Of a stretch of 40,766 nucleotides of DNA, positions 1-40,766 are shown piece after piece (position 1 is the first letter of the stretch; every line of letters starts with the position of its first letter). Location of the stretch: sequence record OZ035791.1; one strand, written 5' to 3'. The notes beneath the pieces were generated by a model. That model saw nothing but the letters and a program-made list of their open reading frames with translations, was not told the origin of the DNA and ran no database searches. A program made the position numbers and the translations under genes. The stretch comes from Kagunavirus LF7074P3.

Positions 1-33
1 GTAACAACGAATATGGGCGAGGTAGAGGAATGA
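1..33 (+). CDS. terS: putative C-terminal 10 codons + stop of terS, if window end joins window start
   Basis: Frame from 40251 continues in phase through 1..30 and stops at TGA 31-33, overlapping terL ATG (30-32) as ATGA. Confidence 0.5.
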   Translation, partial: VTTNMGEVEE

Positions 34-1280
34 GTATTCAGCTATCCGCCCCTCAGGCACTGTTCCTGAATTGTGACAATAAATACAAGGCCTACGTCGG
101 TGGCTTCGGCAGCGGCAAGACGTTTGTCGGCTGTCTTGACCTGCTTACATTTATGCTCAAGCACCCCGGTACGCGCCTCGGATACTTCGGCCCGACATAT
201 CCGGCTATCCGTGACATCTTCTACCCGACATTTGAGGAAGCCGCTAACCTGCTCGGCCTCGATGTGCTGGTTAAATCTGGCGACAAAGAAGTCGTGGTTA
301 CTCGCGGTAAGACGGTGCTCGGTACAGTTATCTGCCGTTCTATGGATAACCCAGGCTCGATAGTCGGCTTCAAAATCGCTGCTGCGGTCGTGGATGAGCT
401 TGATGTATTGAGCCGTGAGAAAGCTGAGCTGGCGTGGAACAAAATAGTCGCCCGTATGCGTCTGGTTATCCCCGGCGTAACTAACCACATCTCTGTCACC
501 ACGACACCGGAAGGGTTCAAGTTCGTCTACGCCAAGTTCAAAGAGAACCCGACGCCGAGTTACTCGATGGTGCAGGCTTCTACACACGAGAACGCGCGAT
601 TCCTGCCGCCTGACTACATTAGCTCACTGACCGAGACTTACCCCGCGCAACTGATTAACGCGTACCTGAACGGTGAGTTCGTTAACCTGACATCCGGCAG
701 CGTGTATTATGCGTATGACCGTCGCAAGCACCGCAGCAAAGAGACAATTCAACCGGGCGATACACTGTACATCGGGCAGGACTTCAACGTTACGAAGAAC
801 GCCAGCGCCGTGTATGTGCAACGTAAAGACGGCTGGCACGCGGTGGCAGAACTGAAAGGTCTGTTTGATACGCCGGACACCGTGCGTGTAATTACTGAGA
901 AGTGGAAGTCGCAGGGCCACCGCATAGTCGTTTACCCGGACGCCAGCGGCAAGAACCGCAAGACCAACTCGGCGTCAATCTCAGATATTGCGTTACTCCA
1001 GCAGGCCGGTTTCGATGTTCGCGCTAAATCCGCCAACCCTCCGGTTAAAGACCGTGTTTTAGCCGTGAATACTGCACTGGAAAAAGGTAAGCTGTGGGTT
1101 AATGACCACTTATGCCCCGAGATAGCGAAGACGCTGGAGCAGCAGGCATACGATGATAACGGAGAGCCAGCTAAAGACGGCATCATTGACCATATGGCGG
1201 ATGCTCTCGGCTATCCTGTAGTTTACGAGATGCCGGTGGCTAAACCAGTAATCAACATCCCGGTGACTTTCGCACTTTAA
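30..1280 (+). CDS. terL: terminase large subunit
   Basis: 416-aa ORF with Walker-A-like GGFGSGKT near N-terminus; ATG at 30 overlaps (ATGA) the stop of the terS frame if window ends are joined; RBS GAGG upstream. Confidence 0.85.
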   Translation: MSIQLSAPQALFLNCDNKYKAYVGGFGSGKTFVGCLDLLTFMLKHPGTRLGYFGPTYPAIRDIFYPTFEEAANLLGLDVLVKSGDKEVVVTRGKTVLGTVICRSMDNPGSIVGFKIAAAVVDELDVLSREKAELAWNKIVARMRLVIPGVTNHISVTTTPEGFKFVYAKFKENPTPSYSMVQASTHENARFLPPDYISSLTETYPAQLINAYLNGEFVNLTSGSVYYAYDRRKHRSKETIQPGDTLYIGQDFNVTKNASAVYVQRKDGWHAVAELKGLFDTPDTVRVITEKWKSQGHRIVVYPDASGKNRKTNSASISDIALLQQAGFDVRAKSANPPVKDRVLAVNTALEKGKLWVNDHLCPEIAKTLEQQAYDDNGEPAKDGIIDHMADALGYPVVYEMPVAKPVINIPVTFAL

Positions 1281-1291: not shown

Positions 1292-2785
1292 ATGGTTTCC
1301 GCAAACATTAACGCAGGGCAAGGGCAGAACGTTAAAACCCGCCACCGCCAGTACGAAGAGTATTTCCCTAAGTGGCAGAAGGTGCGACATGCGCTTTCTG
1401 GCGACCTGACATCGTATCTACGTGACGTCAGTAAGAACGAGCCGGACCCGGTTTACGGTCTCCAGCGTCAGGCTGAATACGAAGCGGGGGCAATTTGCTA
1501 CAACTTCACCAAGCGAACGCTTTCAGGCATGGTCGGCAGCGTAATGCGCAAAGACCCCGAGATGATTATTCCGTCTCAGATGGAATACCTGACCACTAAC
1601 TGTGACGGGTCGGGCGTTGGCCTGTGGCAGCACGCACAGGATACTCTGTATGAGATTGATGCTGTTGGTCGCGGTGGTTTGCTGGTTGACGCCCCCGCGG
1701 TAGAAGTAGCTACCATGGCAGAGCAAAACGAGGGTTTACTAAACCCAACAATCGCTTTCTACACCGCAGAGAATATCATCAACTGGCGTCTCCAGCGCGT
1801 CGGGTCTGTTAATCGTGTGGTTATGGTTGTATTGCGTGAGGAATACGAGTACACCGATGGCGCGAATGAGTTCCGCCCCAACTACGGCGAGCAATACCGA
1901 GTCCTTGATATTTTCGAAGGCCAGTATCGCCAGCGTCTGTACCGCTTTAACCAGAAAGGTGCACTGACGGAAGGTGGCTATATCGAAATATTCCCGAAAC
2001 TCGGTAATATTCCGGTCGGGGTGATTCCGTTCACGTTCATCGGCGCGGGAAATAACGACTCAACCCCTGACGATGCACCTTTGCTGCCGTTGGCTGAACT
2101 TAATATCGGGCACTACCGCAACAGCGCGGACAATGAGGAGTCCAGCTTCGTCGTAGGCCAGCCTACTCTGTTCATCGCCCCCGGTGAGAACATGAGCATG
2201 GGACAATGGAAAGAAGCCAACCCTCGCGGAGTGCGTATGGGGTCACGTTCTGGCCATAACATCGGTTACGGCGGCAATGCGTTTCTGGTCCAGGCCGGTG
2301 AGAACAACCTAGCCAAGCAGAACATGTTGGATAAAGAGAACCAGGCAATCCAGATTGGTGCACAGCTTATTACCCCGACGCAGCAAATCACCGCGGAATC
2401 GGCACGCCTGCAACGCGGCGCTGATACGTCCGTTATGGCAACAATCGCACGTAACGTAAGCATGGCGTATACCGATGCGTTGCGCTGGGTCGCGGGTATG
2501 CTTGGGCTTAGCGACAGCACTGAAATTGAGTTCAAACTGAACATGGAGTTCTTCCTGCAACCAATGACCGCTCAGGACCGCGCGCAGTGGATGGCGGATA
2601 TTAACGCGGGCCTGTTACCGGCTACCGCTTACTATGCTGCGTTGCGTAAGGCGGGGGTAACTGACTGGACAGACGAGGACATTAAGAACGCTATCGAGGA
2701 TGCGCCTCTGCCATTAGGTGCTGTTGCTCAGGTGGCTGGGGAGATTCCGCAGTCGGCGCAGCAAAAAGACCCCACCCAGCAGTAA
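1292..2785 (+). CDS. portal protein (positional call)
   Basis: 497-aa ORF 12 nt downstream of terL, size and position typical of portal; no motif verified. Confidence 0.7.
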   Translation: MVSANINAGQGQNVKTRHRQYEEYFPKWQKVRHALSGDLTSYLRDVSKNEPDPVYGLQRQAEYEAGAICYNFTKRTLSGMVGSVMRKDPEMIIPSQMEYLTTNCDGSGVGLWQHAQDTLYEIDAVGRGGLLVDAPAVEVATMAEQNEGLLNPTIAFYTAENIINWRLQRVGSVNRVVMVVLREEYEYTDGANEFRPNYGEQYRVLDIFEGQYRQRLYRFNQKGALTEGGYIEIFPKLGNIPVGVIPFTFIGAGNNDSTPDDAPLLPLAELNIGHYRNSADNEESSFVVGQPTLFIAPGENMSMGQWKEANPRGVRMGSRSGHNIGYGGNAFLVQAGENNLAKQNMLDKENQAIQIGAQLITPTQQITAESARLQRGADTSVMATIARNVSMAYTDALRWVAGMLGLSDSTEIEFKLNMEFFLQPMTAQDRAQWMADINAGLLPATAYYAALRKAGVTDWTDEDIKNAIEDAPLPLGAVAQVAGEIPQSAQQKDPTQQ

Positions 2786-25190: not shown

Positions 25191-25220
25191 TTCTCAATTC
25201 CTTATATTGTTGGTGTGTGA

Positions 25221-25740: not shown

Positions 25741-25868
25741 TCCAGCACCCACAGATAAATTGCGATGAATATACCCAATACGGCTACCATCATGCCGTAT
25801 CGCCCCTCATGACAGTAGACACCCGCGGCGAATCCCGCCAGTACCGCAATAATCAGTTTACTTAGCAT
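25737..25868 (-). CDS. small membrane protein (43 aa)
   Basis: MLSKLIIAVLAGFAAGVYCHEGRYGMMVAVLGIFIAIYLWVLE; ATG lies 10 nt inside the 3' end of the polymerase ORF in another frame. Confidence 0.3.
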   Translation of the reverse strand: MLSKLIIAVLAGFAAGVYCHEGRYGMMVAVLGIFIAIYLWVLE

Positions 25869-28107: not shown

Positions 28108-28123
28108 TATTTTCGACCCTTAG

Positions 28124-28147
28124 TAAAAAGGCCCAATGAAGGGCCTT
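28124..28147 (-). terminator. partial terminator/attenuator between SSB-like gene and polymerase
   Basis: Minus-strand AGGCCC-TTCATT-GGGCCT hairpin followed by TTTTA. Confidence 0.4.
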
Positions 28148-28166
28148 AGTTAAATTGATTCAGATA

Positions 28167-28793: not shown

Positions 28794-28847
28794 CTTAATT
28801 TCTCGCTTTTCAGTTTACTCCTGGAAGCTGCCAGGCCAGTGATTAGA

Positions 28848-28876
28848 ACTATAATAGCTAACTATTCAGGTGTCAA
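28848..28876 (-). promoter_or_regulatory. sigma70-like promoter TTGACA-N17-TATAGT (minus strand) with ATAG-N4-CTATTCA dyad
   Basis: Minus-strand gTTGACAcctgaatagttagctatTATAGT; 55 nt upstream of SSB-like gene start. Confidence 0.7.
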
Positions 28877-28880
28877 CAAT

Positions 28881-30122: not shown

Positions 30123-30277
30123 GCTCTTAAACTCCCACCCCATTTAACTTTACGCGTTTTGCGTTTATATGCGCACGTGTCGCCGCTACGGTTGAATATA
30201 ATCAGCCAAGTCGAGTTGCTTACTCGAAAAGGCTGGTGGCGTTTAATAAAGAGAAGTCGCGCTTTACGGTTCGTCAT
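30119..30277 (-). CDS. small basic protein (52 aa)
   Basis: ATG with AGGAG 8 nt upstream; stop overlaps nuclease ATG (ATGA); not in ORF track. Confidence 0.35.
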   Translation of the reverse strand: MTNRKARLLFIKRHQPFRVSNSTWLIIFNRSGDTCAYKRKTRKVKWGGSLRA

Positions 30278-30317
30278 TCTGTAAACTCCTAAATCCACGC
30301 GAAATCAGAATACATAA

Positions 30318-30596
30318 TTACAAACATGCTCTGTTCTCCCACTGGTCAATTAAATGTCTGGTCTGGTGCTGGCAATGCATGGCCCATCCATACATCGACT
30401 CGAAGACATAAAAGTCAGGCTTGGCAAAAGTCGTGCGCTTAATCTGCGACACATGACGGCCTATATCTTTAGCCCGCGGTACTTTGCCTAAGTACGCCAT
30501 CTCTTCCATCTGGTGTGCACCGGACGGCGCACGCAATAACCATAGCGCCTCTGTGTTATCCCGCCGGTCAACGGCGCGGTATAGTTGGTAAATCAT
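30318..30596 (-). CDS. hypothetical protein
   Basis: 92-aa ORF in leftward operon. Confidence 0.45.
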   Translation of the reverse strand: MIYQLYRAVDRRDNTEALWLLRAPSGAHQMEEMAYLGKVPRAKDIGRHVSQIKRTTFAKPDFYVFESMYGWAMHCQHQTRHLIDQWENRACL

Positions 30597-30639
30597 AATC
30601 CCGACCCTCAGTTAAAGCGGCCCGAAGGCCGCGAGATAA

Positions 30640-31107
30640 TTATTCTTCTTCGAAATACTTGTTCTTGATTGCCGTCAGGCGTTCCAGGTATTCAGCAAGG
30701 TCTTCGTCTTTAATCGCGGCAATCTTCATCTTCTTACCGGTGAACTCTTCCAGCAGTTCATCGGAATCATCGCACGCGGCGTCGCTCGGACCTTCGTTAA
30801 TTGCATCGTCGATAGCCTGAATCTGGTCACGCAGAGACTGGTAATCTACTTCTTCCTTCTCTTCCGGTTCTGGCGTCGGTTCCTCTACTTTAGATTTACG
30901 CGGCTTGCGTTTCGGCTTCTCTTCTTCTGCTGGTTTAGTGTCAACGATGTCTTCACCTTCAACCGGGATTTCTTTTGTTGCTTCTTTTGCAACATCAGGC
31001 TCGGTTGTTGCGGTTTCAGCAACGACAACTTGTTTCGCGCTGTTCGCAGCAATCAGTTCATGGGCTACTACGAAACGTTCCAGTAATTTTAAGAATTGGT
31101 CTAACAT
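30640..31107 (-). CDS. highly acidic hypothetical protein
   Basis: 155 aa, long Glu/Asp-rich stretches with one KRKPRKSK patch; first gene downstream of leftward promoter 31139-31168; RBS GAGGAG. Confidence 0.5.
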   Translation of the reverse strand: MLDQFLKLLERFVVAHELIAANSAKQVVVAETATTEPDVAKEATKEIPVEGEDIVDTKPAEEEKPKRKPRKSKVEEPTPEPEEKEEVDYQSLRDQIQAIDDAINEGPSDAACDDSDELLEEFTGKKMKIAAIKDEDLAEYLERLTAIKNKYFEEE

Positions 31108-31138
31108 TTGTTTCTCTCCTCTCGTTTGGTATGGGTTA

Positions 31139-31168
31139 ACTATAATAGCGAACTATTCATGATGTCAA
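31139..31168 (-). promoter_or_regulatory. sigma70-like promoter TTGACA-N18-TATAGT (minus strand) with ATAG-N4-CTATTCA dyad
   Basis: Minus-strand aTTGACAtcatgaatagttcgctattATAGT. Confidence 0.65.
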
Positions 31169-31173
31169 TGGGC

Positions 31174-31204
31174 TTTTCTAAAATAATTAATATGGTACTA
31201 TTCA
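31174..31204 (+). promoter_or_regulatory. candidate rightward promoter/operator for cro-like gene
   Basis: ATAT-ggta-CTATTCA dyad (31190-31204) with TACTAT -10-like hexamer; -35 poorly defined. Confidence 0.3.
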
Positions 31205-31232
31205 CATATCAACTGACTAAGGAGTAATTGAC

Positions 31233-31448
31233 ATGCAACCATCTGAACTAGGCATCCGTGTAGAGCAACGCCGTAAAGAACTCGGTATCTCCCAGCGCCA
31301 TCTGGCTGTCCTGGCCGGTGTTTCCCAAGGCGCGATTAACCAGCTGGCACTTGGAGTAACTCAGGACGTCCGCCCGGCGACGCTGTTTAAACTGGCGGAA
31401 GTGCTGGAAGTAGACGCCAAGTGGCTGGCGTTCGGTGAAGGGGCTTAA
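31233..31448 (+). CDS. Cro/CI-type (XRE-family) HTH DNA-binding protein
   Basis: 71 aa; ...ELGISQRHLAVLAGVSQGAINQL... HTH; RBS AGGAG; transcribed opposite to surrounding leftward genes. Confidence 0.75.
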   Translation: MQPSELGIRVEQRRKELGISQRHLAVLAGVSQGAINQLALGVTQDVRPATLFKLAEVLEVDAKWLAFGEGA

Positions 31449-31463
31449 CGCCCCTTTCTTTTT
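31439..31463 (+). terminator. rho-independent terminator (rightward only)
   Basis: AGGGGC-TTAAC-GCCCCT hairpin + TTTCTTTTT overlapping cro-like stop. Confidence 0.7.
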
Positions 31464-31465
31464 AC

Positions 31466-33673
31466 CTATTCCAAATCCTCTTCTGTCACCACCAGCATTT
31501 CATTCGGTTCGTATATTGTCTTCGGTCTTAGTCTATCCCCTATTCTTTCAGGTATACGATACGTTCTCGGTACTACTTCGCCATTAGCATCACAGCCTAG
31601 CATTAGTTCACCATCTTTCAGCATTTTATCAAGATGGGTGTTAGTCACAGAAAAGTCACCGGAACGGGCCACTATCTGCTGCTGAGTAAAACCGCGACCT
31701 GTGTCATCTGACTGTTGCAGGTCTTCCAGTGCCGAAAGTATCGACTCCTTCCTTACTTCATCCCTGCCGCGTTTAACTTCTTCCTTTACTTTTTGTTTAC
31801 CTTCGTTAGTTAACCCTTCTTCCCGCTCTTTCTCCTCGTCAGTTTTGAACGGCTCGAAGCCCCACGGCATCAGAACAAGCGCCTTGTGTGGTTCCGGCAG
31901 GTCGAGGTTTACGATTGTGCCGTATTCCTCTGTGCTGCCCAAGAACTCAACAGCACGGTACTCTTTCGGCGGTGGTGCTTCACGGAACTGTACAGACTCA
32001 AGTACCATGCCAACCGTTTTCTGTTGAGGCCCGTGCTTAAATTTCGAGTGGTATACGTTTATCTGACGGTCGGTTGCACGTTCTATTGTCAGTTCCACAT
32101 CGACACCCGCATACAGCGCCCCGCTGCCACGGGCTTTCTTTCCGCCCTTCGGTGTATGGTGGACGACGCCCACCGCGGCTTTAGTTGCGTCACGTACTTC
32201 TTTAAGGATGGCGATAACTTTACCCATGCCGATTGCCGTTGATGAACTGTTCTCGTCGAACTTATCAATCGTCATGGCCAGTGTCTGGTTAAGGGTGTCG
32301 AACGCAACCATCCCAATTGGCTCGTCACCCGCAGTTTCTCGCATTAGCTTAATCAGGCTTTTCAGTTTGCCAACTTCGCCCATATCGATGACATGTACAT
32401 AATCTTTACCTTCCTCGCCGTATTTAGCCGCGAGTGCATCAATACGGGTGCGTGTGGCAGCACCGCCCTCACCGTCAATATAGAAATGGTGGCAACGCTG
32501 TGTATCAGCGCCTGCAAACCGGTACCCGGCGGCGCTCAGGTACATCATACCCAGCGTATAGAATGATTTATATGTGCCGGATTCCCCGACGATGTCCCAG
32601 ATGCAATCCGACGGCATGTACCCTTCAACGACGAAATCAGCCTTTACCGGTTCAGGTAACTCGTCATCGTCTTCAAGGTCTTCCAGTGTACAAGTTACAG
32701 GCTCCTCGTTCTCTGTGCGGTGCAGTTCTTCAATCTCTTCATCCGGTAAATCAGGCAGAGCCGCACGAATGCTGTTAATACTGATAGGTTGCTTGTCTAC
32801 GTTAAGCTCGTCCGGAAGGCCGCACATACGCAGGGCCAAATGTTGTCGGCGGTTAAGCTCAGTGCAAGCACCGTTGTTTGTGTGCTGGCACACGAAGCGC
32901 ACTTCTTTACCGTCGAGCATGATGCTGGTGGAGCCTTTGCCGGTGTGCAGGTGTTCGTTAGGGCAAGGCACTTCGTACCCGCGACCGGAAGATAAAGCGT
33001 CAAGGCCAAGCTCCGCTTCGCAGAAATGCGCTATATCCGCGTTAAGCCCATGCTCATCGGCAGCAAGGGTCTTAGCTTCACGCTTACGCAACCCCATTTC
33101 TTCGGCTTTCTTGATGTACCGCTCGGCACGGATAACACGCCCTTCTGTAACCGTTATCTTCGACTCTTTATGCGGCAGGTAGATAAGGCGGTTGCCATCT
33201 TCTGTGCAGTGGTCGCGCAATGCTTCGTCTATTTCTAACTCAGCACAAATAGCACGTTGCACCATCCACGCGTCGTTAGAGTTAAACGGCGTGCGGGCCG
33301 GTACAAGAACGCGGAAAGCGTAGTCACCGTTTTTACACGCGTGCTGGTGCGACGCCGTTGTGTGCAGAATATTGAAGAACGGCGCGTTCTTGAATTTGCG
33401 GGTGAGGTCGCGGTACTGGGTACGGTTTAGATGGTCGAAATCGAACTTAACCACACTGTCTTCCAGAATCGCGTTCTTACGGCGACCGCCAACCGGCGCA
33501 ATAGCTTTCTGCTTAATCTTGGCCGCGTCGTACTCTTCCTTAGTCCATGACGGGTCTACGGACAGACGCTTCGATGTATCGCAGACATACTCTACAAACT
33601 GCTCCAGTGGCATTTCACGGGCTACCGGGTTTTTATCGAAAGTGTTACGCAGCGTTGCAAAAACAATATTCAT
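31466..33673 (-). CDS. DNA primase / RecA-like ATPase (primase-helicase-like) replication protein
   Basis: 735 aa; central Cys/His zinc-binding-like segment (CPNEHLHTGK...C), Walker A-like GESGTYKS and Walker B-like VAFDTL. Confidence 0.7.
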   Translation of the reverse strand: MNIVFATLRNTFDKNPVAREMPLEQFVEYVCDTSKRLSVDPSWTKEEYDAAKIKQKAIAPVGGRRKNAILEDSVVKFDFDHLNRTQYRDLTRKFKNAPFFNILHTTASHQHACKNGDYAFRVLVPARTPFNSNDAWMVQRAICAELEIDEALRDHCTEDGNRLIYLPHKESKITVTEGRVIRAERYIKKAEEMGLRKREAKTLAADEHGLNADIAHFCEAELGLDALSSGRGYEVPCPNEHLHTGKGSTSIMLDGKEVRFVCQHTNNGACTELNRRQHLALRMCGLPDELNVDKQPISINSIRAALPDLPDEEIEELHRTENEEPVTCTLEDLEDDDELPEPVKADFVVEGYMPSDCIWDIVGESGTYKSFYTLGMMYLSAAGYRFAGADTQRCHHFYIDGEGGAATRTRIDALAAKYGEEGKDYVHVIDMGEVGKLKSLIKLMRETAGDEPIGMVAFDTLNQTLAMTIDKFDENSSSTAIGMGKVIAILKEVRDATKAAVGVVHHTPKGGKKARGSGALYAGVDVELTIERATDRQINVYHSKFKHGPQQKTVGMVLESVQFREAPPPKEYRAVEFLGSTEEYGTIVNLDLPEPHKALVLMPWGFEPFKTDEEKEREEGLTNEGKQKVKEEVKRGRDEVRKESILSALEDLQQSDDTGRGFTQQQIVARSGDFSVTNTHLDKMLKDGELMLGCDANGEVVPRTYRIPERIGDRLRPKTIYEPNEMLVVTEEDLE

Positions 33674-33798
33674 TTCTTTTTCTCCGCGCGTTCTAAGGCT
33701 TCCTGCATACGACGCATTGCGCGGTTCATCTTTACCGGTGCGAAGAAATCAGCGCCGTGTTTCTGGCGGCGCAACTGTGGAACTATTAACTTCGTCAT
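33670..33798 (-). CDS. small basic protein (42 aa)
   Basis: RBS AAGGA; stop overlaps primase ATG (ATGA). Confidence 0.3.
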   Translation of the reverse strand: MTKLIVPQLRRQKHGADFFAPVKMNRAMRRMQEALERAEKKK

Positions 33799-33838
33799 TG
33801 TATAATCCTTGTGCTTACTTTGATGATTTGTGCTTCGG

Positions 33839-33869
33839 CCCCGACGTTCTAGCGTTGGGGTTTCTTTTT
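33839..33869 (+). terminator. plus-strand hairpin + T-tract inside leftward operon
   Basis: CCCCGACG-TTCTAG-CGTTGGGG (one G-U) followed by TTTCTTTTT; hairpin weaker on minus strand. Confidence 0.4.
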
Positions 33870-34158
33870 ACCGTTTAGCCAACTCTTCCAGCAAATTTTT
33901 ATACTCTTCAAAATATTCCTCGACCAAATCATCGCCGAAATAGAAGTCGATATACTCGAGATTATCTCTTACGTTAAGCGACGCAGACATGGTGCTTAGT
34001 TGGCGTAAGCTAATTAGCTTCATTTCTGTTTCTACACAGAAAGGCCGGTAGGTATCGAGGTGGCAAGAGATGTTGAAGCATAAAGCGAACTCTCCCGCCA
34101 CGGAGTGAACCATATACACTTCGTTTTCTGCTTTATTGTGGAAAATTACACCTTTCAT
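33868..34158 (-). CDS. hypothetical protein
   Basis: 96-aa ORF, ATGA overlap with upstream HTH gene. Confidence 0.45.
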   Translation of the reverse strand: MKGVIFHNKAENEVYMVHSVAGEFALCFNISCHLDTYRPFCVETEMKLISLRQLSTMSASLNVRDNLEYIDFYFGDDLVEEYFEEYKNLLEELAKR

Positions 34159-34337
34159 TTCACATTCTCCTTAATCCATTCTTCAACTTTATTACGGTCA
34201 AATGTACCTGGTAAACGGCGACCCATAACCTTAATACAACAATCAGGGAATTTACCACTGCGCAACCAGTTATTAATTGTCTGACGTGTTACCCCAATAC
34301 GCTCGGCTACTTCATTCTGGGTCATGTAATGTTGCAT
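34155..34337 (-). CDS. small HTH DNA-binding protein (AlpA/excisionase-like fold)
   Basis: 60 aa from ATG 34337 (RBS AGGAG); ...MTQNEVAERIGVTRQTINNWL...; track ORF to 34451 judged an extension across promoter DNA. Confidence 0.55.
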   Translation of the reverse strand: MQHYMTQNEVAERIGVTRQTINNWLRSGKFPDCCIKVMGRRLPGTFDRNKVEEWIKENVK

Positions 34338-34368
34338 TTTTATATCTCCTGTTTGTTTGGTGAAGCTG

Positions 34369-34397
34369 AGTATAGGATAGCGGGAATGTAAAAGCAA
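34369..34397 (-). promoter_or_regulatory. leftward early promoter TTGCTT-N17-TATACT
   Basis: Minus-strand hexamers with 17-nt spacer, about 25 nt upstream of ATG 34337. Confidence 0.5.
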
Positions 34398-34434
34398 CCA
34401 ATCCCTGCAATATTTAATCTTTACAAAAAAGTTA

Positions 34435-34464
34435 TTGAAAGTTCTTGACACATGTTTGTATAAT
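34435..34464 (+). promoter_or_regulatory. rightward promoter TTGAAA-N18-TATAAT
   Basis: Consensus -10 TATAAT at 34459-34464; divergent from leftward promoter; no ORF for about 350 nt downstream. Confidence 0.5.
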
Positions 34465-34491
34465 GGTTTTGGGACTTGTATATATTACGGA

Positions 34492-34523
34492 GTTGACGAA
34501 CCCTCCCTGAGGGATTCGTCAAC
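34492..34523. repeat. 32-bp near-perfect palindrome GTTGACGAAcCCTCcctGAGGGaTTCGTCAAC
   Basis: 14-bp arms with one bulge; read directly. Confidence 0.8.
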
Positions 34524-34663
34524 CCCTCCCAGACAGCTGAGATGCTTGTTTTAGGGTTTAAGGATAAGTGTATCTAAATCTCATTTAAAGAAGTAACCCA
34601 CTGAAATATCTACTGTTTCTTAATGTGCCGTAGATTCGCAACCGTAAAAATGTAACGATTATT

Positions 34664-34691
34664 GGGCAGGCTTAAGGCCTGCCCTTTAGTT
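34664..34691 (+). terminator. rho-independent terminator
   Basis: GGGCAGGC-TTAAG-GCCTGCCC hairpin followed by TTTAGTT. Confidence 0.6.
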
Positions 34692-34756
34692 ACCAAGTAA
34701 TAAGAATAAAGGCACAACCTTCCCCGAAGAATCGCAACGGCAGCGTAACTATTCTC

Positions 34757-34785
34757 TTGCACACCCCAACATAATAGGATACTAT
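34757..34785 (+). promoter_or_regulatory. sigma70-like promoter TTGCAC-N17-TACTAT with ATAG-N4-CTATTCA dyad
   Basis: cTTGCACaccccaacATAATAGGATACTATTCAC; near-identical copy on minus strand at 13027-13060. Confidence 0.65.
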
Positions 34786-34819
34786 TCACTTATCGGAACG
34801 AGACAGAGGAGTTGGGGTT

Positions 34820-35005
34820 ATGTTTAAGAAGGGTCAGTTGGTGAGAACCAGACACCATGGCAAAGGTGTAATTAAGCACGTTTCGCAGAGAGTTGCAGAT
34901 AGGTATCTTCTTACCAATCCGTATTGGGATTTTGATATGTATTTCCAGGGACGCGAAATAGTAGAGCTCATCGGCAACAATTTTAAATTCAAAGGGGCGA
35001 AGTGA
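34820..35005 (+). CDS. hypothetical small protein
   Basis: 61-aa ORF, RBS GAGGAG. Confidence 0.5.
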   Translation: MFKKGQLVRTRHHGKGVIKHVSQRVADRYLLTNPYWDFDMYFQGREIVELIGNNFKFKGAK

Positions 35006-35190
35006 TGGAAGAATTAATTTACGACGTATACGTCGACGGGGTCATAACAGAGACGACAAGTAATAAAGATTACGCAATAAAGCGGTATGTGTATTATGCC
35101 GCAGTGGTAGGAAGGATGGTAGAAGTGCGGGAGCAAACGGCATCGAATCATGATGCTCGTGCCGACGACTCTGAGGGAGGTTGCCGTTAA
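35005..35190 (+). CDS. hypothetical small protein
   Basis: ATG 35005 overlapping previous stop; RBS AGGGG. Confidence 0.45.
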   Translation: MEELIYDVYVDGVITETTSNKDYAIKRYVYYAAVVGRMVEVREQTASNHDARADDSEGGCR

Positions 35191-35345
35191 TGCGAATCCG
35201 TATAACTGACCGCAGGCTTATAGATTTCGGTATCTCGGTAGGTGATGTTTTTCTGGCGTTCAGCAGCAACCATTATGGTTTTATGATTGAGTACAAAGGG
35301 TCGTTATTGTTCGTGTATCGGGATGAATGTGAGGTTCTGGTATGA
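35190..35345 (+). CDS. hypothetical small protein (51 aa)
   Basis: TAATG overlap, RBS GAGGGAGG; not in ORF track. Confidence 0.4.
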   Translation: MRIRITDRRLIDFGISVGDVFLAFSSNHYGFMIEYKGSLLFVYRDECEVLV

Positions 35346-35485
35346 GAGAAGCATTTGAACGGTGGGCTGTGGTCGAGGGTCTGCCGGTTAACAAGGGTTC
35401 AAAGAAAGAGTACCTGAACGTTAAGACCCGTCTCGCGTGGCGGGCGTTGAAAGCTGGTGTGTTGTCTGTTGCGAATCCGAGGTGA
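35342..35485 (+). CDS. hypothetical small protein (47 aa)
   Basis: ATGA overlap with upstream ORF; not in ORF track. Confidence 0.35.
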   Translation: MREAFERWAVVEGLPVNKGSKKEYLNVKTRLAWRALKAGVLSVANPR

Positions 35486-35488
35486 GAT

Positions 35489-35689
35489 ATGAGCGAGTGG
35501 ATTAAGTGTAGTGAGATGCTGCCAGGTAATGGGTATACGGATAAAGAGTTCCTGGTGTATGAAACGTTAAATAACGCAGTTCAGCACGATTATTACATAG
35601 TTCCTGATGACGGGAGAAAGCCTTTCTGGAATCACTACGATAAGTACGTGACGCACTGGATGCCGTTACCCGAGCCGCCAGAAGTGTGA
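35489..35689 (+). CDS. hypothetical protein (DUF551-like C-terminus)
   Basis: 66 aa ending ...VTHWMPLPEPPEV, reminiscent of DUF551 phage proteins (recall-based). Confidence 0.45.
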   Translation: MSEWIKCSEMLPGNGYTDKEFLVYETLNNAVQHDYYIVPDDGRKPFWNHYDKYVTHWMPLPEPPEV

Positions 35690-35822
35690 TGTTCAATAGT
35701 TTGGGATCTTACTGAGTGACTTACGCTGCTACACAGCAGCGTACAACTTTAACTTAGTGTCGTCAAAGGCGACACTTTCATCAAACGCAACAATCGAAGC
35801 GACTATTGCAGGAGATGCAACA

Positions 35823-35996
35823 ATGATTACTAAAGAACAGGCTGAACGACTAATCACGTTAATCGACACGATGATTGACGTAAAAACCGATTTAGCAACG
35901 GCAACAGAGGAATCCGCTACCTGGTCGCTTGAAGAAAGAGAAGCAGAAGCGGAAAGGGAGTTACTGGCGTTCATCGACTCTATAACACACCAATAA
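35823..35996 (+). CDS. hypothetical small protein
   Basis: ATG 35823 with GGAG 8 nt upstream; in frame with track ORF 35757..35996. Confidence 0.4.
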   Translation: MITKEQAERLITLIDTMIDVKTDLATATEESATWSLEEREAEAERELLAFIDSITHQ

Positions 35997-36003
35997 AATT
36001 TAC

Positions 36004-36032
36004 TTGCACACTAAGATAGAATAGGCTACTAT
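36004..36032 (+). promoter_or_regulatory. sigma70-like promoter TTGCAC-N17-TACTAT with ATAG-N4-CTATTCA dyad
   Basis: aCTTGCACactaagatagAATAGGCTACTATTCA, 32 nt upstream of gene at 36064. Confidence 0.6.
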
Positions 36033-36063
36033 TCATTTACACAAACGAGAGGGGAGACAGAAT

Positions 36064-36612
36064 ATGAAAGATTATAGCGAAGTAACTTTAGGTGAGTTGC
36101 AGGACGAGTACGAAGATATGCTCTACCCGTTCATCTGCGACGGGGACTACAACGGCGTCTATAACGGGGTGAGCGAAGACCTGGCGCATGAGGTGCAGAT
36201 TAAGGAGTTGCGGGAAGACAACATTAAGAAATCTGAGCACATATCGCACCTAACAGGGCAAGTTAAGGAGTTGCGTCTGGCATTGGCCAAGGCTACTGGT
36301 GACGTGGAGGCATACAAACTTATCCGCAAAGGTGCGTACGGTTCGGAGCAATCTGGTTGCCGAAAAGAAGATACGCAGGAATGTGACCACAATTGGATTA
36401 TCGCTCCAGGATTGTTTATTGCCGAAGGCCACAAGGACAACGTGCCCGGTAGCCTGTTTTGCTGCGAATGCGGCAAGCGTGAGTGGGACGGACTTGAGTA
36501 TGGGCCAACAGCCTGTACACGGGAGTGCAAACACAGTTTCTATTATGTAATAACAGATGGCTCCGCGCCGTTCGGTACGAAAGTATGTAAAACGTGCGGG
36601 GAATACTTCTGA
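36064..36612 (+). CDS. Cys-rich (zinc-ribbon-like) hypothetical protein
   Basis: 182 aa; N-terminal coiled-coil-like region, C-terminal CxxC...CxxC clusters. Confidence 0.5.
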   Translation: MKDYSEVTLGELQDEYEDMLYPFICDGDYNGVYNGVSEDLAHEVQIKELREDNIKKSEHISHLTGQVKELRLALAKATGDVEAYKLIRKGAYGSEQSGCRKEDTQECDHNWIIAPGLFIAEGHKDNVPGSLFCCECGKREWDGLEYGPTACTRECKHSFYYVITDGSAPFGTKVCKTCGEYF

Positions 36613-36815
36613 TGACCAGCATCTTATTTATCTGGGTGCTGTCCACGGGTCAGATGCATCTGGCGGCATCAGAAACGTTTTACTCGATGGAGGCGTGCCA
36701 GTCAGCGGCACGCGCCGCAGAGAACGCGCACTTCCTGTTTCAGGGTGACAAGCCTAACGATTCAGAGGTACGCGCTATCTGCTCACCTAAACGTATTGGT
36801 AAACAGGAGAAATAA
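36612..36815 (+). CDS. small secreted/membrane-anchored protein
   Basis: 67 aa from ATG 36612 (overlaps upstream stop); N-terminal hydrophobic signal-like segment MTSILFIWVLSTGQMHLAAS. Confidence 0.45.
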   Translation: MTSILFIWVLSTGQMHLAASETFYSMEACQSAARAAENAHFLFQGDKPNDSEVRAICSPKRIGKQEK

Positions 36816-36816
36816 C

Positions 36817-37020
36817 ATGGTACAGAGATATTTATTACAAGGCGGTTTAATTGGGCCGCACGACGCAGGTGATTGGGTTGGCTATGAAGATTACGCAAAA
36901 CTTGAGGCCGCCGTTATCGCCTTACTTATGGATATAAATCGACGCTACCCTGGAGAAGGGTTTAAGTGCCCGTTAATACTTAAACTCGCGGAGATTGTGG
37001 AACATGAGCCTGGCAACTGA
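36817..37020 (+). CDS. hypothetical small protein
   Basis: ATG 36817 with AGGAG upstream; 67 aa. Confidence 0.45.
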   Translation: MVQRYLLQGGLIGPHDAGDWVGYEDYAKLEAAVIALLMDINRRYPGEGFKCPLILKLAEIVEHEPGN

Positions 37021-37297
37021 CATCCTTAAACGCAGCGGCCTTGCGCCGCTGTCGCCGAGAGCGAATACACGAATACACAAGCGCCGCCGTAATGCACTGT
37101 ACCCCGAGATTCAGGCCAGGCGCAAAGCGGTCCGCGCCTGTGGATTCCAGAACGGGAAGGCCGTGAATCTCGGTGAGTTTAAAACGCAGGAACGTGCAGC
37201 TATCGCTAATCGGCTATTTAATTACTGGAAATCGCTGGGGTACGTGGATATTCCGACGAAACCACAGAGACGACAATACATCTGGCGGCATAAATAA
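37004..37297 (+). CDS. AP2-like DNA-binding domain protein (putative)
   Basis: ...GFQNGKAVNLGEFKTQERAAIANRLF... resembles AP2/ERF-type three-strand + helix DNA-binding domains found in phage proteins (recall-based). Confidence 0.4.
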   Translation: MSLATDILKRSGLAPLSPRANTRIHKRRRNALYPEIQARRKAVRACGFQNGKAVNLGEFKTQERAAIANRLFNYWKSLGYVDIPTKPQRRQYIWRHK

Positions 37298-37327
37298 ACC
37301 GTTATTAAGATAATTCCTACCCGTGGT

Positions 37328-37368
37328 ATCCTCCAGTTACTGCATACTTAATACGCACCTGGAGGATT
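37328..37368 (+). promoter_or_regulatory. hairpin sequestering the holin RBS
   Basis: ATCCTCCAG (37328-37336) pairs with CTGGAGGAT (37360-37368), 23-nt loop; 3' arm contains GGAGGA Shine-Dalgarno 6 nt before TTG start at 37373. Confidence 0.5.
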
Positions 37369-37372
37369 CATC

Positions 37373-37681
37373 TTGGATAAATTTACTGAAACAGTGACAG
37401 GCTGGCTTCTCGCCGCCGCGCTCGCCGGAGGGGTCATCGGACTACGACAACATAAGTCCGTTATTTCTGGCCCTATCGACGGATTCTGCTTTATTGCTAC
37501 TGGTTTCGCCTGCGCTGTATTTGGCGCACCTCTCGCGGCTCAATGGTTCGGTATCACGGGCGACCGTGAAATCGCTGGCCTTGGCTTCATCATCGCTATT
37601 CTCTGGATGCCTATCTATTCCCGTCTCTCCAGTATCGTCGCTGGAGAATACATCGCACGTCGAGGAGGCACAGATGAATGA
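37373..37681 (+). CDS. holin (3-TMD, class I-like)
   Basis: 102 aa with three hydrophobic segments and charged C-terminus; TTG start; directly upstream of lysozyme gene. Confidence 0.6.
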   Translation: MDKFTETVTGWLLAAALAGGVIGLRQHKSVISGPIDGFCFIATGFACAVFGAPLAAQWFGITGDREIAGLGFIIAILWMPIYSRLSSIVAGEYIARRGGTDE

Positions 37682-37946
37682 GTTATTCTGGTTCGGCGGT
37701 ATGCTGGCAATCGGCGGCACATCGCTGTTTAATGTATACCATCCGAGCGTGGATGACGGGCTATTTGGTCGGGTGCTCTATATCCTGACTGCTATCGTCT
37801 GCGCTGCCGGATGTATCCACCTGTTACAGGGCAGCATGTCGCCGACGCTGCCTGAGACATTAATCACATTAGTTGCGCTGCGTCAGATTCGTCAGGCGTG
37901 GCTGTCATACGGAGGACATAAGCGTGTCTCGAAACATTTCAGATAA
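37674..37946 (+). CDS. second holin-like 2-TMD membrane protein (holin/antiholin candidate)
   Basis: 90 aa from ATG 37674 with strong RBS AGGAGG; two hydrophobic segments; overlaps both neighbours. Confidence 0.5.
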   Translation: MNELFWFGGMLAIGGTSLFNVYHPSVDDGLFGRVLYILTAIVCAAGCIHLLQGSMSPTLPETLITLVALRQIRQAWLSYGGHKRVSKHFR

Positions 37947-38412
37947 TGGATTGCATTTTACCGCCGCGTTTGAGGGGTTCCGCGGAACTGCGTATCGTGC
38001 TACGCCATCGGAAAAATACTTAACTACAGGCTACGGTCATTACGGGCCGGACGTGGCCCCAGGCAAGACCATCACGCCAGGGCAAGGCCTCCTGTTACTG
38101 AACCGTGATATGGCTAAGGCCGTAGCTGCGGTTGACGCAGCGGCGCACCATTCGCTAACACAGGCGCAGTTTGATGCAGTGTGCGACCTGGTCTATAACG
38201 CGGGGGCCGGCGTTATTTCGGCTACTACCGGTACAGGTAAGGCACTGCGCTCCGGTGATATCGCGACGTTACGGGCTAAACTGGCGCTGTTCATCAACCA
38301 GAACGGCAAACCGTTACTGGGCCTTCGCCGCCGTACCGCCGGTCGCCTGGCGCTGTTTGACGGTAAACCGTGGCAAGAGGCGGAGGCTATCGGGCGCGCG
38401 GTGAAAGGTTGA
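37924..38412 (+). CDS. endolysin (phage lysozyme, GH24-like)
   Basis: ...AFEGFRGTAYRATPSEKYLTTGYGHYG... lysozyme-like catalytic region; GTG 37924 with AGGAGGA upstream. Confidence 0.7.
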   Translation: MSRNISDNGLHFTAAFEGFRGTAYRATPSEKYLTTGYGHYGPDVAPGKTITPGQGLLLLNRDMAKAVAAVDAAAHHSLTQAQFDAVCDLVYNAGAGVISATTGTGKALRSGDIATLRAKLALFINQNGKPLLGLRRRTAGRLALFDGKPWQEAEAIGRAVKG

Positions 38413-38476
38413 CACCCAAGACTAATCCGATGATACTTAAATCACCTCCTGTTCCATCCCTCTGCTCTCCAGTTTT

Positions 38477-38509
38477 ATCCCGGCCCTGACCCAGCCGGGA
38501 TTTTTTTTA
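38477..38509 (+). terminator. strong rho-independent terminator
   Basis: TCCCGGC-loop-GCCGGGA hairpin followed by T8. Confidence 0.85.
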
Positions 38510-38530
38510 TCTATTTTCTGCAATGACTAG

Positions 38531-38559
38531 TTGACTATTATCCTAGACCCTACTATATT
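38531..38559 (+). promoter_or_regulatory. sigma70-like promoter TTGACT-N17-TATATT
   Basis: Hexamers with 17-nt spacer, 34 nt upstream of ATG 38593. Confidence 0.55.
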
Positions 38560-38592
38560 TACTTCATCGACAACGAGAACGGAGTAGAGAAG

Positions 38593-38742
38593 ATGAAAAT
38601 CACAGATACCGAAGCATTCGAAGACGCGCAACTGATGGCGCGCATTGCCGTTAGTCACCGGGGTGGGAGCATTCCCGCGGACTCGTTCTGGTTCGCTGCG
38701 ATGCAGACACTGAAAGCAGCTTATGCAGGAGAGAAGAAATGA
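38593..38742 (+). CDS. hypothetical small protein (49 aa)
   Basis: RBS GGAG; first of nine translationally coupled small ORFs. Confidence 0.4.
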   Translation: MKITDTEAFEDAQLMARIAVSHRGGSIPADSFWFAAMQTLKAAYAGEKK

Positions 38743-38933
38743 AAAATATAGTCCCAGAAGTCGGTAAAGGTTGCTTCGTTGTTTCTTATTTCGATGGGGA
38801 CGAGTACGTTGATTGCGGCCAGTTTCATCAATCTGGTGATGCTGGTGCTTACGCCGCGAAGTTAGTAGGTACTACGCCACTGGAAGACATTCGTATTGTA
38901 TTCAATATGGAACTTGCAGGAGATAAGAAATGA
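38739..38933 (+). CDS. hypothetical small protein
   Basis: 64-aa ORF, ATGA overlap. Confidence 0.45.
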   Translation: MKNIVPEVGKGCFVVSYFDGDEYVDCGQFHQSGDAGAYAAKLVGTTPLEDIRIVFNMELAGDKK

Positions 38934-39088
38934 GCGAACACGGTGAAGTAAGCCAACCATTACGAGTAGGCCGTAAAGTCAGTCACACCCCGTTCCCGAC
39001 ACGCGAGGAACTGATGAAACGTAATAGTTTCCCGGGGCCGGACAAGAACAAGTATCTCAATCGCATGTGGGGAGAGCGTAAAGAATGA
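38930..39088 (+). CDS. hypothetical small protein (52 aa)
   Basis: ATGA overlap with neighbours. Confidence 0.35.
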   Translation: MSEHGEVSQPLRVGRKVSHTPFPTREELMKRNSFPGPDKNKYLNRMWGERKE

Positions 39089-39258
39089 CTAACAACGAAT
39101 ACGAGAAACTTAGCGTCGAATCTGCGACCGGTGAATCAGAAATAGCATGGATTGACGCCCACATTGAGCACTACTTACGGCAAGTAGACGCCCTTATGGA
39201 ACGCCGCCGCGAGCTGATTAACCGCTTCAACCTGAACAAAGGTGACACCAATGCCTAA
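39085..39258 (+). CDS. hypothetical small protein (57 aa)
   Basis: ATGA overlap with upstream ORF. Confidence 0.35.
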   Translation: MTNNEYEKLSVESATGESEIAWIDAHIEHYLRQVDALMERRRELINRFNLNKGDTNA

Positions 39259-39454
39259 AATCACAATCGCATCACTCGAGCGCCGTATTCTGGTGCTTGA
39301 GTCAGAGAAACAGACGTTAGGCGGACAACTGTCAATTAACGGTGAGTTTCAGCTGGAGGCGTTTAAGTTGTTGCTCGGGAAATTGAAGGAAGAAGAGCAG
39401 AAGCTACTACTCTCCCCTGAGTTCGATTACGGTGTTGATGATGAAAGCGCCTGA
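39251..39454 (+). CDS. hypothetical small protein (coiled-coil-like)
   Basis: ATG 39251 overlapping upstream stop. Confidence 0.4.
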   Translation: MPKITIASLERRILVLESEKQTLGGQLSINGEFQLEAFKLLLGKLKEEEQKLLLSPEFDYGVDDESA

Positions 39455-39623
39455 ACCCGTAGTTATCGATGGCGTCCTGTGGAAACCATACTCGGTTAAC
39501 CACATCGACGCCGACGGGAAGAAGTTCAGCTTCTACATTTTTGCAATTAGCCGTGAGCACGCCGCTTGTGTGGTTGATGATATACGAGAAACAGCGTGGC
39601 TTGGTGATGAGATAGTGGGGTGA
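39438..39623 (+). CDS. hypothetical small protein
   Basis: ATG 39438 in frame with track ORF 39432..39623. Confidence 0.4.
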   Translation: MMKAPEPVVIDGVLWKPYSVNHIDADGKKFSFYIFAISREHAACVVDDIRETAWLGDEIVG

Positions 39624-39627
39624 GAGT

Positions 39628-39798
39628 ATGTTCAGTGACATCAACGCAGCAATCGAAGAAGCAATCTGGCGCAGATACAACGGCGAGCAACAACGGCACT
39701 TCTGCCTGGTGCAACGTGGAAACATGATTGCCGTAGTGCAGGACCGCGATAACAAATATCCGAATGCGATGTGGACAACGAGGAATTTTGTAGGATGA
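39628..39798 (+). CDS. hypothetical small protein (56 aa)
   Basis: Uninterrupted frame, coupled to next ORF by ATGA. Confidence 0.35.
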   Translation: MFSDINAAIEEAIWRRYNGEQQRHFCLVQRGNMIAVVQDRDNKYPNAMWTTRNFVG

Positions 39799-40031
39799 TT
39801 ACCAGCATTCCGAACCTGATTAAAGAATACGGCACGATGGCGGAGACATGCCGACAAACCGGCATCAACGAAATGACGATTGCCAAGTACCGCAACGACG
39901 TGAACTGCGAGCGCCACGTAATTTATAACAACCGTCTTATGACGCACGTTAAGACAAGCCCGGTGTTATTCACGCGCCGTGGTATCACTAAAACTGAGCA
40001 ACGTATTGCTAAAGAGGAGAGCGGAGAATGA
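39795..40031 (+). CDS. hypothetical protein with HTH-like segment
   Basis: 78 aa from ATG 39795; ...TCRQTGINEMTIAKYRN... Confidence 0.4.
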   Translation: MITSIPNLIKEYGTMAETCRQTGINEMTIAKYRNDVNCERHVIYNNRLMTHVKTSPVLFTRRGITKTEQRIAKEESGE

Positions 40032-40129
40032 GACTGCTAACCATTCCGAATGCCTGGGCTATTGCCGTAGCTAACGACCATTACGGCGGCGGTGGTAAAA
40101 GAGCACCACGACATGGCCTATACAACTGA
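40028..40129 (+). CDS. hypothetical small protein (33 aa)
   Basis: ATGA overlap with upstream ORF; followed by terminator. Confidence 0.25.
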   Translation: MRLLTIPNAWAIAVANDHYGGGGKRAPRHGLYN

Positions 40130-40133
40130 TACA

Positions 40134-40156
40134 AGCCCTCTACGGAGGGCTTTTCT
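40134..40156 (+). terminator. rho-independent terminator
   Basis: AGCCCTC-TACG-GAGGGCT hairpin + TTTT. Confidence 0.75.
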
Positions 40157-40185
40157 GTACATCCTGCCTAATCCCCTTATATAAT
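40156..40185 (+). promoter_or_regulatory. candidate late promoter (weak -35 TGTACA, consensus -10 TATAAT)
   Basis: TATAAT at 40180-40185; upstream of terS. Confidence 0.35.
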
Positions 40186-40191
40186 CCCTTT

Positions 40192-40235
40192 AGACGCGTA
40201 GGGCGCGTCTGATGCGCTCTGATGGTCAGACGCAT
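40192..40235. repeat. clustered inverted and direct repeats (AGACGCG/CGCGTCT; TCTGATG x2; AGACGC x2)
   Basis: AGACGCGtagggCGCGTCTGATGCGCTCTGATGGTCAGACGCAT, flanked by 9-bp inverted repeat AATCCCCTT (40170-40178) / AAGGGGATT (40240-40248). Confidence 0.8.
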
Positions 40236-40250
40236 ACGCAAGGGGATTCT

Positions 40251-40766
40251 ATGAAGCTGAAACTCAAGCAGCCATCGCCAGAGGTGGTGCAAGCTGCACA
40301 TGAAGAAGCTGTTAGCGCAAACCGTCGACGTAAACGACCGCGCGGTAAACAGAGCCTTTATCAATCGTCCCGTAATTCCGCCGCGTTGTGGGACCCGGAC
40401 TATTGCGACGAATTGATTCGTTTCTTCGACCGCACGTCATGGGAGTCTATGCCGACCGGTGCACACGGAGACTACAAAGCTGTCATTGCGGACAAGCCAC
40501 CGTCACTGGCCCGCTTTGCATTGCACATCGGCGTCACTATCCCGATTATTAAGTTGTGGCTGCGTGAGATTCCAGCTTTTGCAGAAGCATATGAAACAGC
40601 ACAGGCGCTGGAAGAGGCATACTTCACTGAGACGGGGGCCGCGGGTATCTCCGCTACGTTTGCTGCCGCGAAGCTGGGCCTCGGTAAAGAGAAACCAGTT
40701 GAATCTACAGAAGAAACAGCACCGACTGAGATTATTTTCAGTGTTGCAGAGCCTGTAGGTAAAATC
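40251..40766 (+). CDS. terS: terminase small subunit (putative), 3'-truncated by window end
   Basis: ATG 40251 with RBS AAGGGGA; frame open for 172 codons to the last base; basic N-terminus RRRKRPRGK; position immediately before terL if ends are joined. Confidence 0.6.
   Translation, partial: MKLKLKQPSPEVVQAAHEEAVSANRRRKRPRGKQSLYQSSRNSAALWDPDYCDELIRFFDRTSWESMPTGAHGDYKAVIADKPPSLARFALHIGVTIPIIKLWLREIPAFAEAYETAQALEEAYFTETGAAGISATFAAAKLGLGKEKPVESTEETAPTEIIFSVAEPVGKI

Follow-up and report, generated by a model that had tools for sequence, protein, structure and literature searches.

The question raised by this locus is whether the two ends of the sequence belong together. The window, by which we mean the whole stretch of 40,766 bp that was analysed, ends inside a reading frame on the plus strand, the strand on which the features described below around the join also lie. 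From an ATG at 40251 the frame runs through 172 sense codons, the last of which closes exactly on base 40766. Bases 1-33 continue it (GTA ACA ACG AAT ATG GGC GAG GTA GAG GAA TGA) with ten further codons, VTTNMGEVEE, and a TGA at 31-33 that overlaps the ATG of the large terminase gene, terL, at 30-32. The original prediction took this phase-exact closure as a sign that the window is a whole genome whose end joins its start, and read the interrupted frame as the small terminase gene, terS. The frame and its closure were confirmed as described, and after concatenation of the end to the start the terS frame proved to be the sole forward frame open over the join. The argument from chance fared less well. 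Joins of base 40766 to each genome position in turn produced an ATGA-type closure onto an ORF of 100 aa or more at 2.8% of positions, and within 15 codons at 0.9%, so that a chance closure is only moderately unlikely. By itself the phase argument is weak; the decisive evidence for the join, which is real, is provided by homology and by an independent, read-based assembly.

The evidence from homology comes from several kinds of record. In MZ234048, PV040721 and KY295895 the homologues of bases 40766 and 1 adjoin with no gap, and the annotated CDS (181-194 aa) ends in the same VTTNMGEVEE, followed by the stop, and overlaps the terL ATG by four bases. A 600-nt query consisting of the joined window ends was matched as a single piece, over most of its length, in 36 phage records that are opened elsewhere; among these 36 best matches listed, query and record spans were equal, with no net indel. 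The exact 52-nt junction also lies in the interior of three IMG/VR contigs (UViGs). The RefSeq entry of phage K1H is a circular record in which the terminase CDS, 41049..4, passes over the origin and overlaps terL by 4 bases.

The read-based evidence is a Logan assembly of ENA run ERR12949690. Its contig ERR12949690_1 (23,335 bp) encodes the exact 195-aa form of the protein that crosses the join, and consists of window positions 35,482-40,766 and, immediately after them, 1-18,050, with 100% identity over 40,766|1. The contig is covered entirely by two overlapping pieces, each exact against the window, which are substrings of the doubled window at 35,482-50,799 and 6,272-18,050. The other contig, ERR12949690_0 (17,369 bp), is window 18,082-35,450. 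Together the two contigs tile the circle except for two breaks of 31 nt, at 18,051-18,081 and 35,451-35,481, both far from the join, and 23,335 + 17,369 + 31 + 31 gives 40,766. A shared 31-nt repeat was considered as the cause of the breaks and rejected, as the two 31-mers differ; no exact repeat of at least 25 nt was found in the window on either strand, nor was a terminal direct repeat of at least 5 nt. Judging by the exact matches, the reads evidently derive from the same phage as the window. The window is moreover colinear round the whole circle with LF7074P1 (41,071 bp), K1H (41,632 bp) and UTI89UKE1 (41,265 bp, opened elsewhere), and complete relatives measure 40.6-45.8 kb. Because the two contigs and the two breaks add up to the full length and the complete relatives are colinear, no part of the replicon is missing, and the last base runs directly into the first. 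The claim of a whole genome therefore stands on the contig over the join, the contiguous relatives and the colinearity with complete genomes. The window can be used as a closed circle, and no gene is missing at its ends.

To which phage does this circle belong? By its sequence it is a member of Kagunavirus (Guernseyvirinae), a virulent siphovirus of E. coli in the K1G/K1H group. The ICTV rule for a genus is a nucleotide similarity of about 70% or more over the genome. Here LF7074P1 aligns over 37,066 of the 40,766 bases at 93-98%, and K1H over 30,880 at 75-97%; the best matches of both window ends are likewise Kagunavirus records. The order of genes found in K1H and UTI89UKE1 is kept, with terS, terL, portal, head, tail and tailspike genes, a leftward replication block, and lysis and nin-like genes, and is borne out by the Pfam labels of the Logan contigs. 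All differences from LF7074P1, K1H and UTI89UKE1 are internal, none being located at the ends. At 16.7-17.6 kb an ORF has been replaced, at 21.2-23.6 kb the tailspike is a different one, a methyltransferase gene of K1H has no counterpart in the window, and the small early genes vary. The 466-aa form of the ORF that starts at 16215 is not on record in the protein collection searched, which does contain a 447-aa form. The window itself is absent from the phage collection searched, in which the variable middle region was not matched by any record at 99% or better.

Where does the interrupted gene begin, and what might its product be? The 13 codons before 40251 are open in this frame as well and include an ATG at 40212, from which many database entries call a product of 194-195 aa. 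On sequence grounds we consider 40251 the better start, because several relatives carry GTG at 40212, because homologues that are 55-60% identical start at the corresponding MKLKL/MALR position and lack the upstream extension, and because 40251 has a Shine-Dalgarno-like motif of its own. This motif, AAGGGG at 40240..40245, lies 5 nt before the ATG and is kept in relatives as AAGGGG or as AGAGAGG / GAGG. The extension at 40212..40250, MRSDGQTHTQGDS, coincides with the second hairpin of the leader described below and is probably untranslated. With the start at 40251 the gene has 182 codons, of which codons 1-172 occupy 40251..40766 and codons 173-182 with the stop occupy 1..33, and it should be annotated as join(40251..40766,1..33). 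The first part rests on its translation, the protein-family match, the homologues and a profile link; the tail is present in MZ234048, PV040721 and KY295895 and in the product of ERR12949690_1. In a collection of 15 billion proteins the exact 182-aa joined protein was not found, and the 195-aa form was present. Full-length homologues in relatives have 181-194 aa. The ORF that runs off the end of the record is an artefact of layout and not a truncated or unusual gene.

The label terS itself held in part. In its favour are a match of the 182-aa protein to PHROG 3064, 'terminase' (E = 6.5e-70), its position, and a transitive link through profiles; a direct match to a curated family was not obtained. 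Searches of the protein against Pfam (E <= 10) and NCBIfam (E <= 1) returned no match, and thus no curated TerS family, and neither the single sequence nor its profile found a match in the PDB. A profile of the terS family gathered 507 matches at E <= 1e-3 among 1.84e9 representative proteins. When 60 sequences, namely 58 remote profile hits and two close family members, were scanned, Pfam GP3_package was recognised in 45 (best 3.7e-13) and Sf6_terminase in 20; the closest intermediates fell mostly just under the Pfam gathering cut-off, and one was above it. A broader terS profile retrieved only chains of Sf6 gp1 from the PDB, in the helix-turn-helix region and at a non-significant E of about 0.1. 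The AlphaFold2 model, built on an alignment of 18 sequences, was poor (pLDDT 52, pTM 0.28), and it is within this low-confidence model that helices are placed at 86-94, 98-106 and 108-128. A search of metagenome and viral contigs for more distant terS loci, with the distant sub-alignment as query, found none. From the transitive evidence together with its position, the product is, we believe, a divergent member of the P22 gp3 / Sf6 gp1 small-terminase superfamily.

The neighbouring genes fit this picture. The terL gene occupies 30..1280 and encodes 416 aa with Pfam matches to Terminase_6N (3.5e-21), Terminase_6C (5.9e-11) and Terminase_3 (1.3e-7), and its homologues in relatives are annotated as terminase large subunit; against the PDB no significant match to TerL was found, even at E <= 10. 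The portal gene follows at 1292..2785 (Pfam DUF4055, 1.6e-24; PHROG 145 'portal protein', 7e-147) and completes a terS-terL-portal packaging module. As is usual for a small terminase gene, terS overlaps terL as ATGA and the portal gene comes next. Inside the terS tail, at 19..22, a GAGG lies 7 nt before the terL ATG and may act as its Shine-Dalgarno motif. The standard reading of an ATGA overlap with a GAGG inside terS would be translational coupling of terS and terL. Overlaps of the ATGA style are also seen at the window junctions 8592/8595, 8984/8987 and 18131/18134, and the terS-terL overlaps of four distant relatives measure 1, 11, 29 and 11 nt.

Based on these observations, we propose that the window is a complete, circular-map Kagunavirus genome that was cut inside terS, with a coupled terS-terL pair and, by extension from relatives, headful packaging; we would put the probability of this reading as a whole at about 0.93. 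The linear string would be 40,766 bp of non-redundant sequence, obtained by opening a circular assembly map. The opening would lie inside terS, 33 bases before the end of the gene and 29 before the terL start codon, which would place codons 1-172 at the end of the window and codons 173-182 and the stop at its start. Virion DNA that is circularly permuted and terminally redundant yields reads that assemble into a circle. The point at which the circle was opened would be a convention of bookkeeping and not a physical end of the DNA, and it appears to be arbitrary. Packaging initiated at pac and proceeding by the headful, with a TerS of the P22/Sf6 kind, would be the most likely picture.

How do other explanations compare with this one? 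One of them, that the closure is a coincidence and the window an incomplete contig whose ends are not adjacent, draws on the rate of 0.9-2.8% at which random joins close in the ATGA manner. It is already refuted by the read-based contig that is exact over the join, by a C-terminus of ten residues that is identical in homologues, by the lack of any net indel in the 36 best matches listed and by the colinearity with complete genomes, and we give it practically no weight. A second proposal is that base 1 is a real terminus, the precise point of pac cleavage within the 3' end of terS. In one ENA project, five Kagunavirus records (OZ035752, OZ035758, OZ035738, OZ035812 and OZ035783) that differ by up to about 9% here share their opening base, by homology, with the window, and in the well-studied pac phages P22, P1 and SPP1 the pac site is situated in or next to terS. 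A reorientation based on homology accounts for the shared base equally well, however, and the methods of the likely source study consist of SPAdes and Bandage only, with no determination of termini and no procedure for reorientation. Records from other laboratories are opened at many other positions, including the terL ATG, the terS ATG and the terS stop, the Jerseyvirus records from the PhageTerm work have their ends in the leader before terS, and the Logan contig runs straight through base 1. A true terminus at this base is, in our judgement, very improbable.

There remains the explanation that the sequence is circular-complete and yet the virion DNA has fixed ends elsewhere, in the form of a short direct terminal repeat or a cos site that was collapsed by the assembler. 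Any terminal repeat would likewise produce a circular assembly, and the two internal Logan breaks indicate that something perturbed the assembly; a linear genome, however, predicts one break and not two that are 17.4 kb apart. P22 and Sf6 are pac phages, and the relation of TerS to P22 gp3 and Sf6 gp1 also speaks against fixed ends. The TerL families found here, Terminase_6N/6C and Terminase_3, are generic. Published data on relatives agree with headful packaging. The genomes of the Kagunavirus phages G/L/P AB-2017 were closed into circles by mapping of reads, and the TerL proteins of these phages fall beside headful clades (PMC5582158). For Jerseyvirus K47, of the sister genus, PhageTerm indicated P1-like headful packaging; its restriction map was of circular type and its PFGE band diffuse (PMC10783031). 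In the Kagunavirus fBC-Eco01 no termini were detected by PhageTerm, in a paper that also mentions a cos site in generic terms (PMC9825357). Fixed ends are thus unlikely, though more probable than either of the two preceding explanations. We infer headful, circularly permuted packaging from relatives only; if packaging is headful, with terminal redundancy, then 40,766 bp would be the length of the unique sequence and the virion DNA would be somewhat longer.

The region upstream of terS deserves separate description. Within a leader of about 115 nt, 40135-40250, a terminator-like hairpin, a promoter-like site, two hairpins and the terS ribosome-binding motif are arranged in this order. The hairpin at 40135..40156 resembles an intrinsic terminator (GCCCUC-uacg-GAGGGC, then UUUUCU) and may close the upstream block of early and NinH genes. 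It carries a compensatory change from U-A to G-C in Jerseyvirus (GCCCGC/GCGGGC), and distant relatives have an analogous G+C-rich hairpin with a U-run. The promoter-like site at 40156..40185 is of the sigma-70 kind, TGTACA-18 nt-TATAAT, with 10 of 12 positions matching. Its -35 hexamer is invariant in Kagunavirus and Jerseyvirus, where the -10 is either TATAAT or TACAAT, and four distant relatives also have a TATAAT/TACAAT hexamer upstream of the hairpins. The double hairpin itself spans 40192..40235. The first hairpin, 40192-40210, has 7 bp and a UAGGG loop; after one unpaired base, the second, 40212-40235, has 5 + 5 bp, a bulged C and a UGG loop.

Several observations bear on the conservation and folding of this leader. 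The leader is 95-98% identical among E. coli Kagunaviruses, in comparison with 88-92% for the adjacent terS-terL coding DNA, and its predicted fold (z = -3.87) is stronger than that of 200 out of 200 shuffled sequences. Jerseyvirus shares this architecture, made of other stem sequences, as do four distant relatives with a TerS only 55-60% identical. A covariance model of the double hairpin (R1) scores 93 bits at this place, its sole plus-strand match in the window, and a model derived from the closer sequences recovers, in the position expected, two of three left-out distant leaders (E = 2e-5 and 0.017). In the alignment of the hairpins 97.8% of cells are paired, a share that drops to 18-47% if the partners are shifted along, and two-sided changes occur in 10 of 17 pairs, counts that come from an alignment fitted to the model and from only about six independent lineages. 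G-U wobbles are tolerated in the hairpins, which points to RNA rather than DNA. Against Rfam, at the gathering cut-off and at E <= 10, the leader gave chance-level matches and no family, and a tRNA search found none. A long-range helix, AAUCCCCUU/AAGGGGAUU, that would sequester the terS Shine-Dalgarno motif was considered and rejected, since transcription probably starts downstream of its 5' arm, and in several relatives a C to A change disrupts that arm with no compensating change.

What are the implications of such a leader? The double hairpin at 40192-40235 could be an undescribed cis-acting RNA that heads the late operon, with its packaging and structural genes, in Guernseyvirinae and relatives, and that acts as a put-like, factor-independent antiterminator, as a translational operator for TerS or as a pac recognition element. 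We put this forward as a speculative proposal with the odds well against it. A put-like element might let RNA polymerase pass terminator-like hairpins downstream, such as those in the intergenic gaps of the late operon at 2796, 4658, 10574 and 13720. The leader may equally be a TerS operator or a pac element, or it may serve as a 5' stabiliser or as an RNase III site. The arrangement at the join is already known, being annotated in the reference genomes of the genus, and is a matter of record layout and not new biology. The feature that may be new is the two-hairpin leader and not the join, and the leader, with its terminator, promoter and double hairpin and no described RNA family, is the one element here that may be worth pursuing.

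It is instructive to compare the locus with systems already described, beginning with the closest. The nearest record, LF7074P1 (OZ035758 / OZ035752), is opened at the very same base as the window; identity is 100% over bases 1-1300 and 99.6% over the final 1000 bases, and identity times coverage, calculated by hand from the alignments, amounts to about 88% of the window. The two differ in that 16,675-17,618 and 21,250-23,568, the latter being the tailspike region, are unrelated, and the spike of LF7074P1 is a 984-aa protein of the endosialidase type. The type phages of Kagunavirus, K1H and K1G (NC_027994, NC_027993), provide the next comparison. K1H shares with the window the order of genes round the circle and the terS-terL-portal module; about 76% of the window aligns, at about 75-97% identity in nucleotides. 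The K1H tailspike, a K1 endosialidase, and a DNA methyltransferase that K1H also carries are both lacking in the window, and where the window has an ORF of 447-466 aa K1H has one of 166 aa. Its record is opened at the terL ATG, whereas that of the window is opened 29 nt earlier. The Jerseyvirus phages of Salmonella (Jersey, SETP3, Kenya-K47) belong to the same subfamily. Some members have about 87-91% DNA identity at the terS-terL junction, and the architecture of the leader is as in the window; the host and genus are different, however, and many members have another TerS tail (...EVTIKVVSGER). The packaging data cited for Jerseyvirus come from those phages and not from the phage of the window.

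Beyond the subfamily, the P22 gp3 / Sf6 gp1 superfamily (PF16677 GP3_package, PF20901 Sf6_terminase) offers the model for terS: a gene for a small protein directly upstream of terL and overlapping it, as in the window. The terS of the window itself matches neither GP3_package nor Sf6_terminase, even at E <= 10; its central motif, PPSLxxFAxxxGVxxxxxxxW..P.F..A, aligns weakly with the helix-turn-helix region of Sf6 gp1. For the leader, the comparison is with the put RNA of phage HK022, a double hairpin located early in a long transcript, just past the promoter (PMC8632103). The put element is about 65 nt long and the double hairpin of the window about 44 nt; the two have no relation in sequence or in Rfam, and the leader stands at the head of the late operon and not of an early one. 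The likeness, which is a resemblance only, is that in the window, too, two hairpins come directly after a promoter-like site and before an operon that contains terminator-like hairpins.

Directly upstream of the terS start, the plus strand of the window carries a double-hairpin leader (40189-40253), which we propose is possibly a new cis-regulatory RNA. The two hairpins, with compensatory changes, are kept in Kagunavirus, in Jerseyvirus and in four more distant relatives, and the leader is more conserved than the coding DNA that adjoins it. A comparison of 40189-40253 with Rfam matched no family. What might such an RNA do? Possible roles include those of a put-like antiterminator, comparable to the HK022 RNA of that name, a stabiliser, an operator for TerS or a pac element. 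The leader is preceded, on the same strand, by a terminator-like hairpin with a U-run and, directly 3' of it, a conserved promoter-like site, TGTACA-18 nt-TATAAT (40135-40185). In Jerseyvirus this hairpin has G-C in place of U-A, a compensatory change, and the region probably separates the nin-like early genes from the late packaging operon.

An alternative in-frame start on the plus strand, ATG 40212, is used by many database entries and would make a 195-aa TerS. The additional stretch (40212-40250) overlies hairpin 2 of the leader; the ATG codon is GTG in several relatives, and distant homologues are without it. We consider that this extension is probably not translated. At the other end of the protein, the tail (residues about 144-182; window 40680-40766 joined to 1-33) is predicted to be disordered and, unlike the nearly invariant TerS core, exists in the family in two unrelated versions, one ending in EPVGKIVTTNMGEVEE and the other in EVTIKVVSGER. 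The tail may be a TerL-binding module that is swapped together with terL. The long rightward late operon contains further terminator-like hairpins, strong, G+C-rich and with U-runs, in its intergenic gaps or close to them (plus strand, 2796-2811, 4658-4677, 10574-10593 and 13720-13743), the one at 10574 being bidirectional. Their presence within the operon implies read-through, antitermination or internal promoters.

The Logan assembly of run ERR12949690, made independently, is broken at exactly 18051-18081 and 35451-35481, 31 nt each, a length that is presumably the k-mer size of the assembler. The two segments do not repeat one another, and a search for repeats of at least 25 nt in the window found none; polymorphism and contaminating related sequence are both possible sources of the breaks. 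As to the opening base, every Kagunavirus record of a single ENA project (OZ035752, OZ035758, OZ035738, OZ035812 and OZ035783) is opened at the homologue of window base 1, which lies 29 nt upstream of the terL ATG and in no obvious gene-start frame.

The window's 735-aa primase-helicase is identical to those of the neighbouring Logan run ERR12949689 (locus L014) and of LF7074P1 (locus L012, record OZ035752), and this identity suggests that the phage comes from the same collection as a sibling isolate whose differences lie mostly in the receptor-binding modules. In the window an ORF of 447-466 aa (16215-17615, plus strand) without a match in Pfam separates the tape-measure gene from the DUF1833 minor tail gene, whereas K1H and LF7074P1 have a 147-166-aa ORF at this position; a similar 447-448-aa version occurs in some metagenomic relatives (loci L015, L017 and L018). 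The DNA methyltransferase gene of K1H (24972-25796 in its record) has no counterpart in the window, where the homologous flanking blocks are just 36 bp apart (about 24975-25012). The 675-aa tailspike (21055-23082, plus strand) bears no relation to the 984-aa K1 endosialidase spike found in the nearest relatives, LF7074P1 and K1H, and matches Tail_spike_N only weakly, which implies that the phage uses a different surface-glycan receptor.
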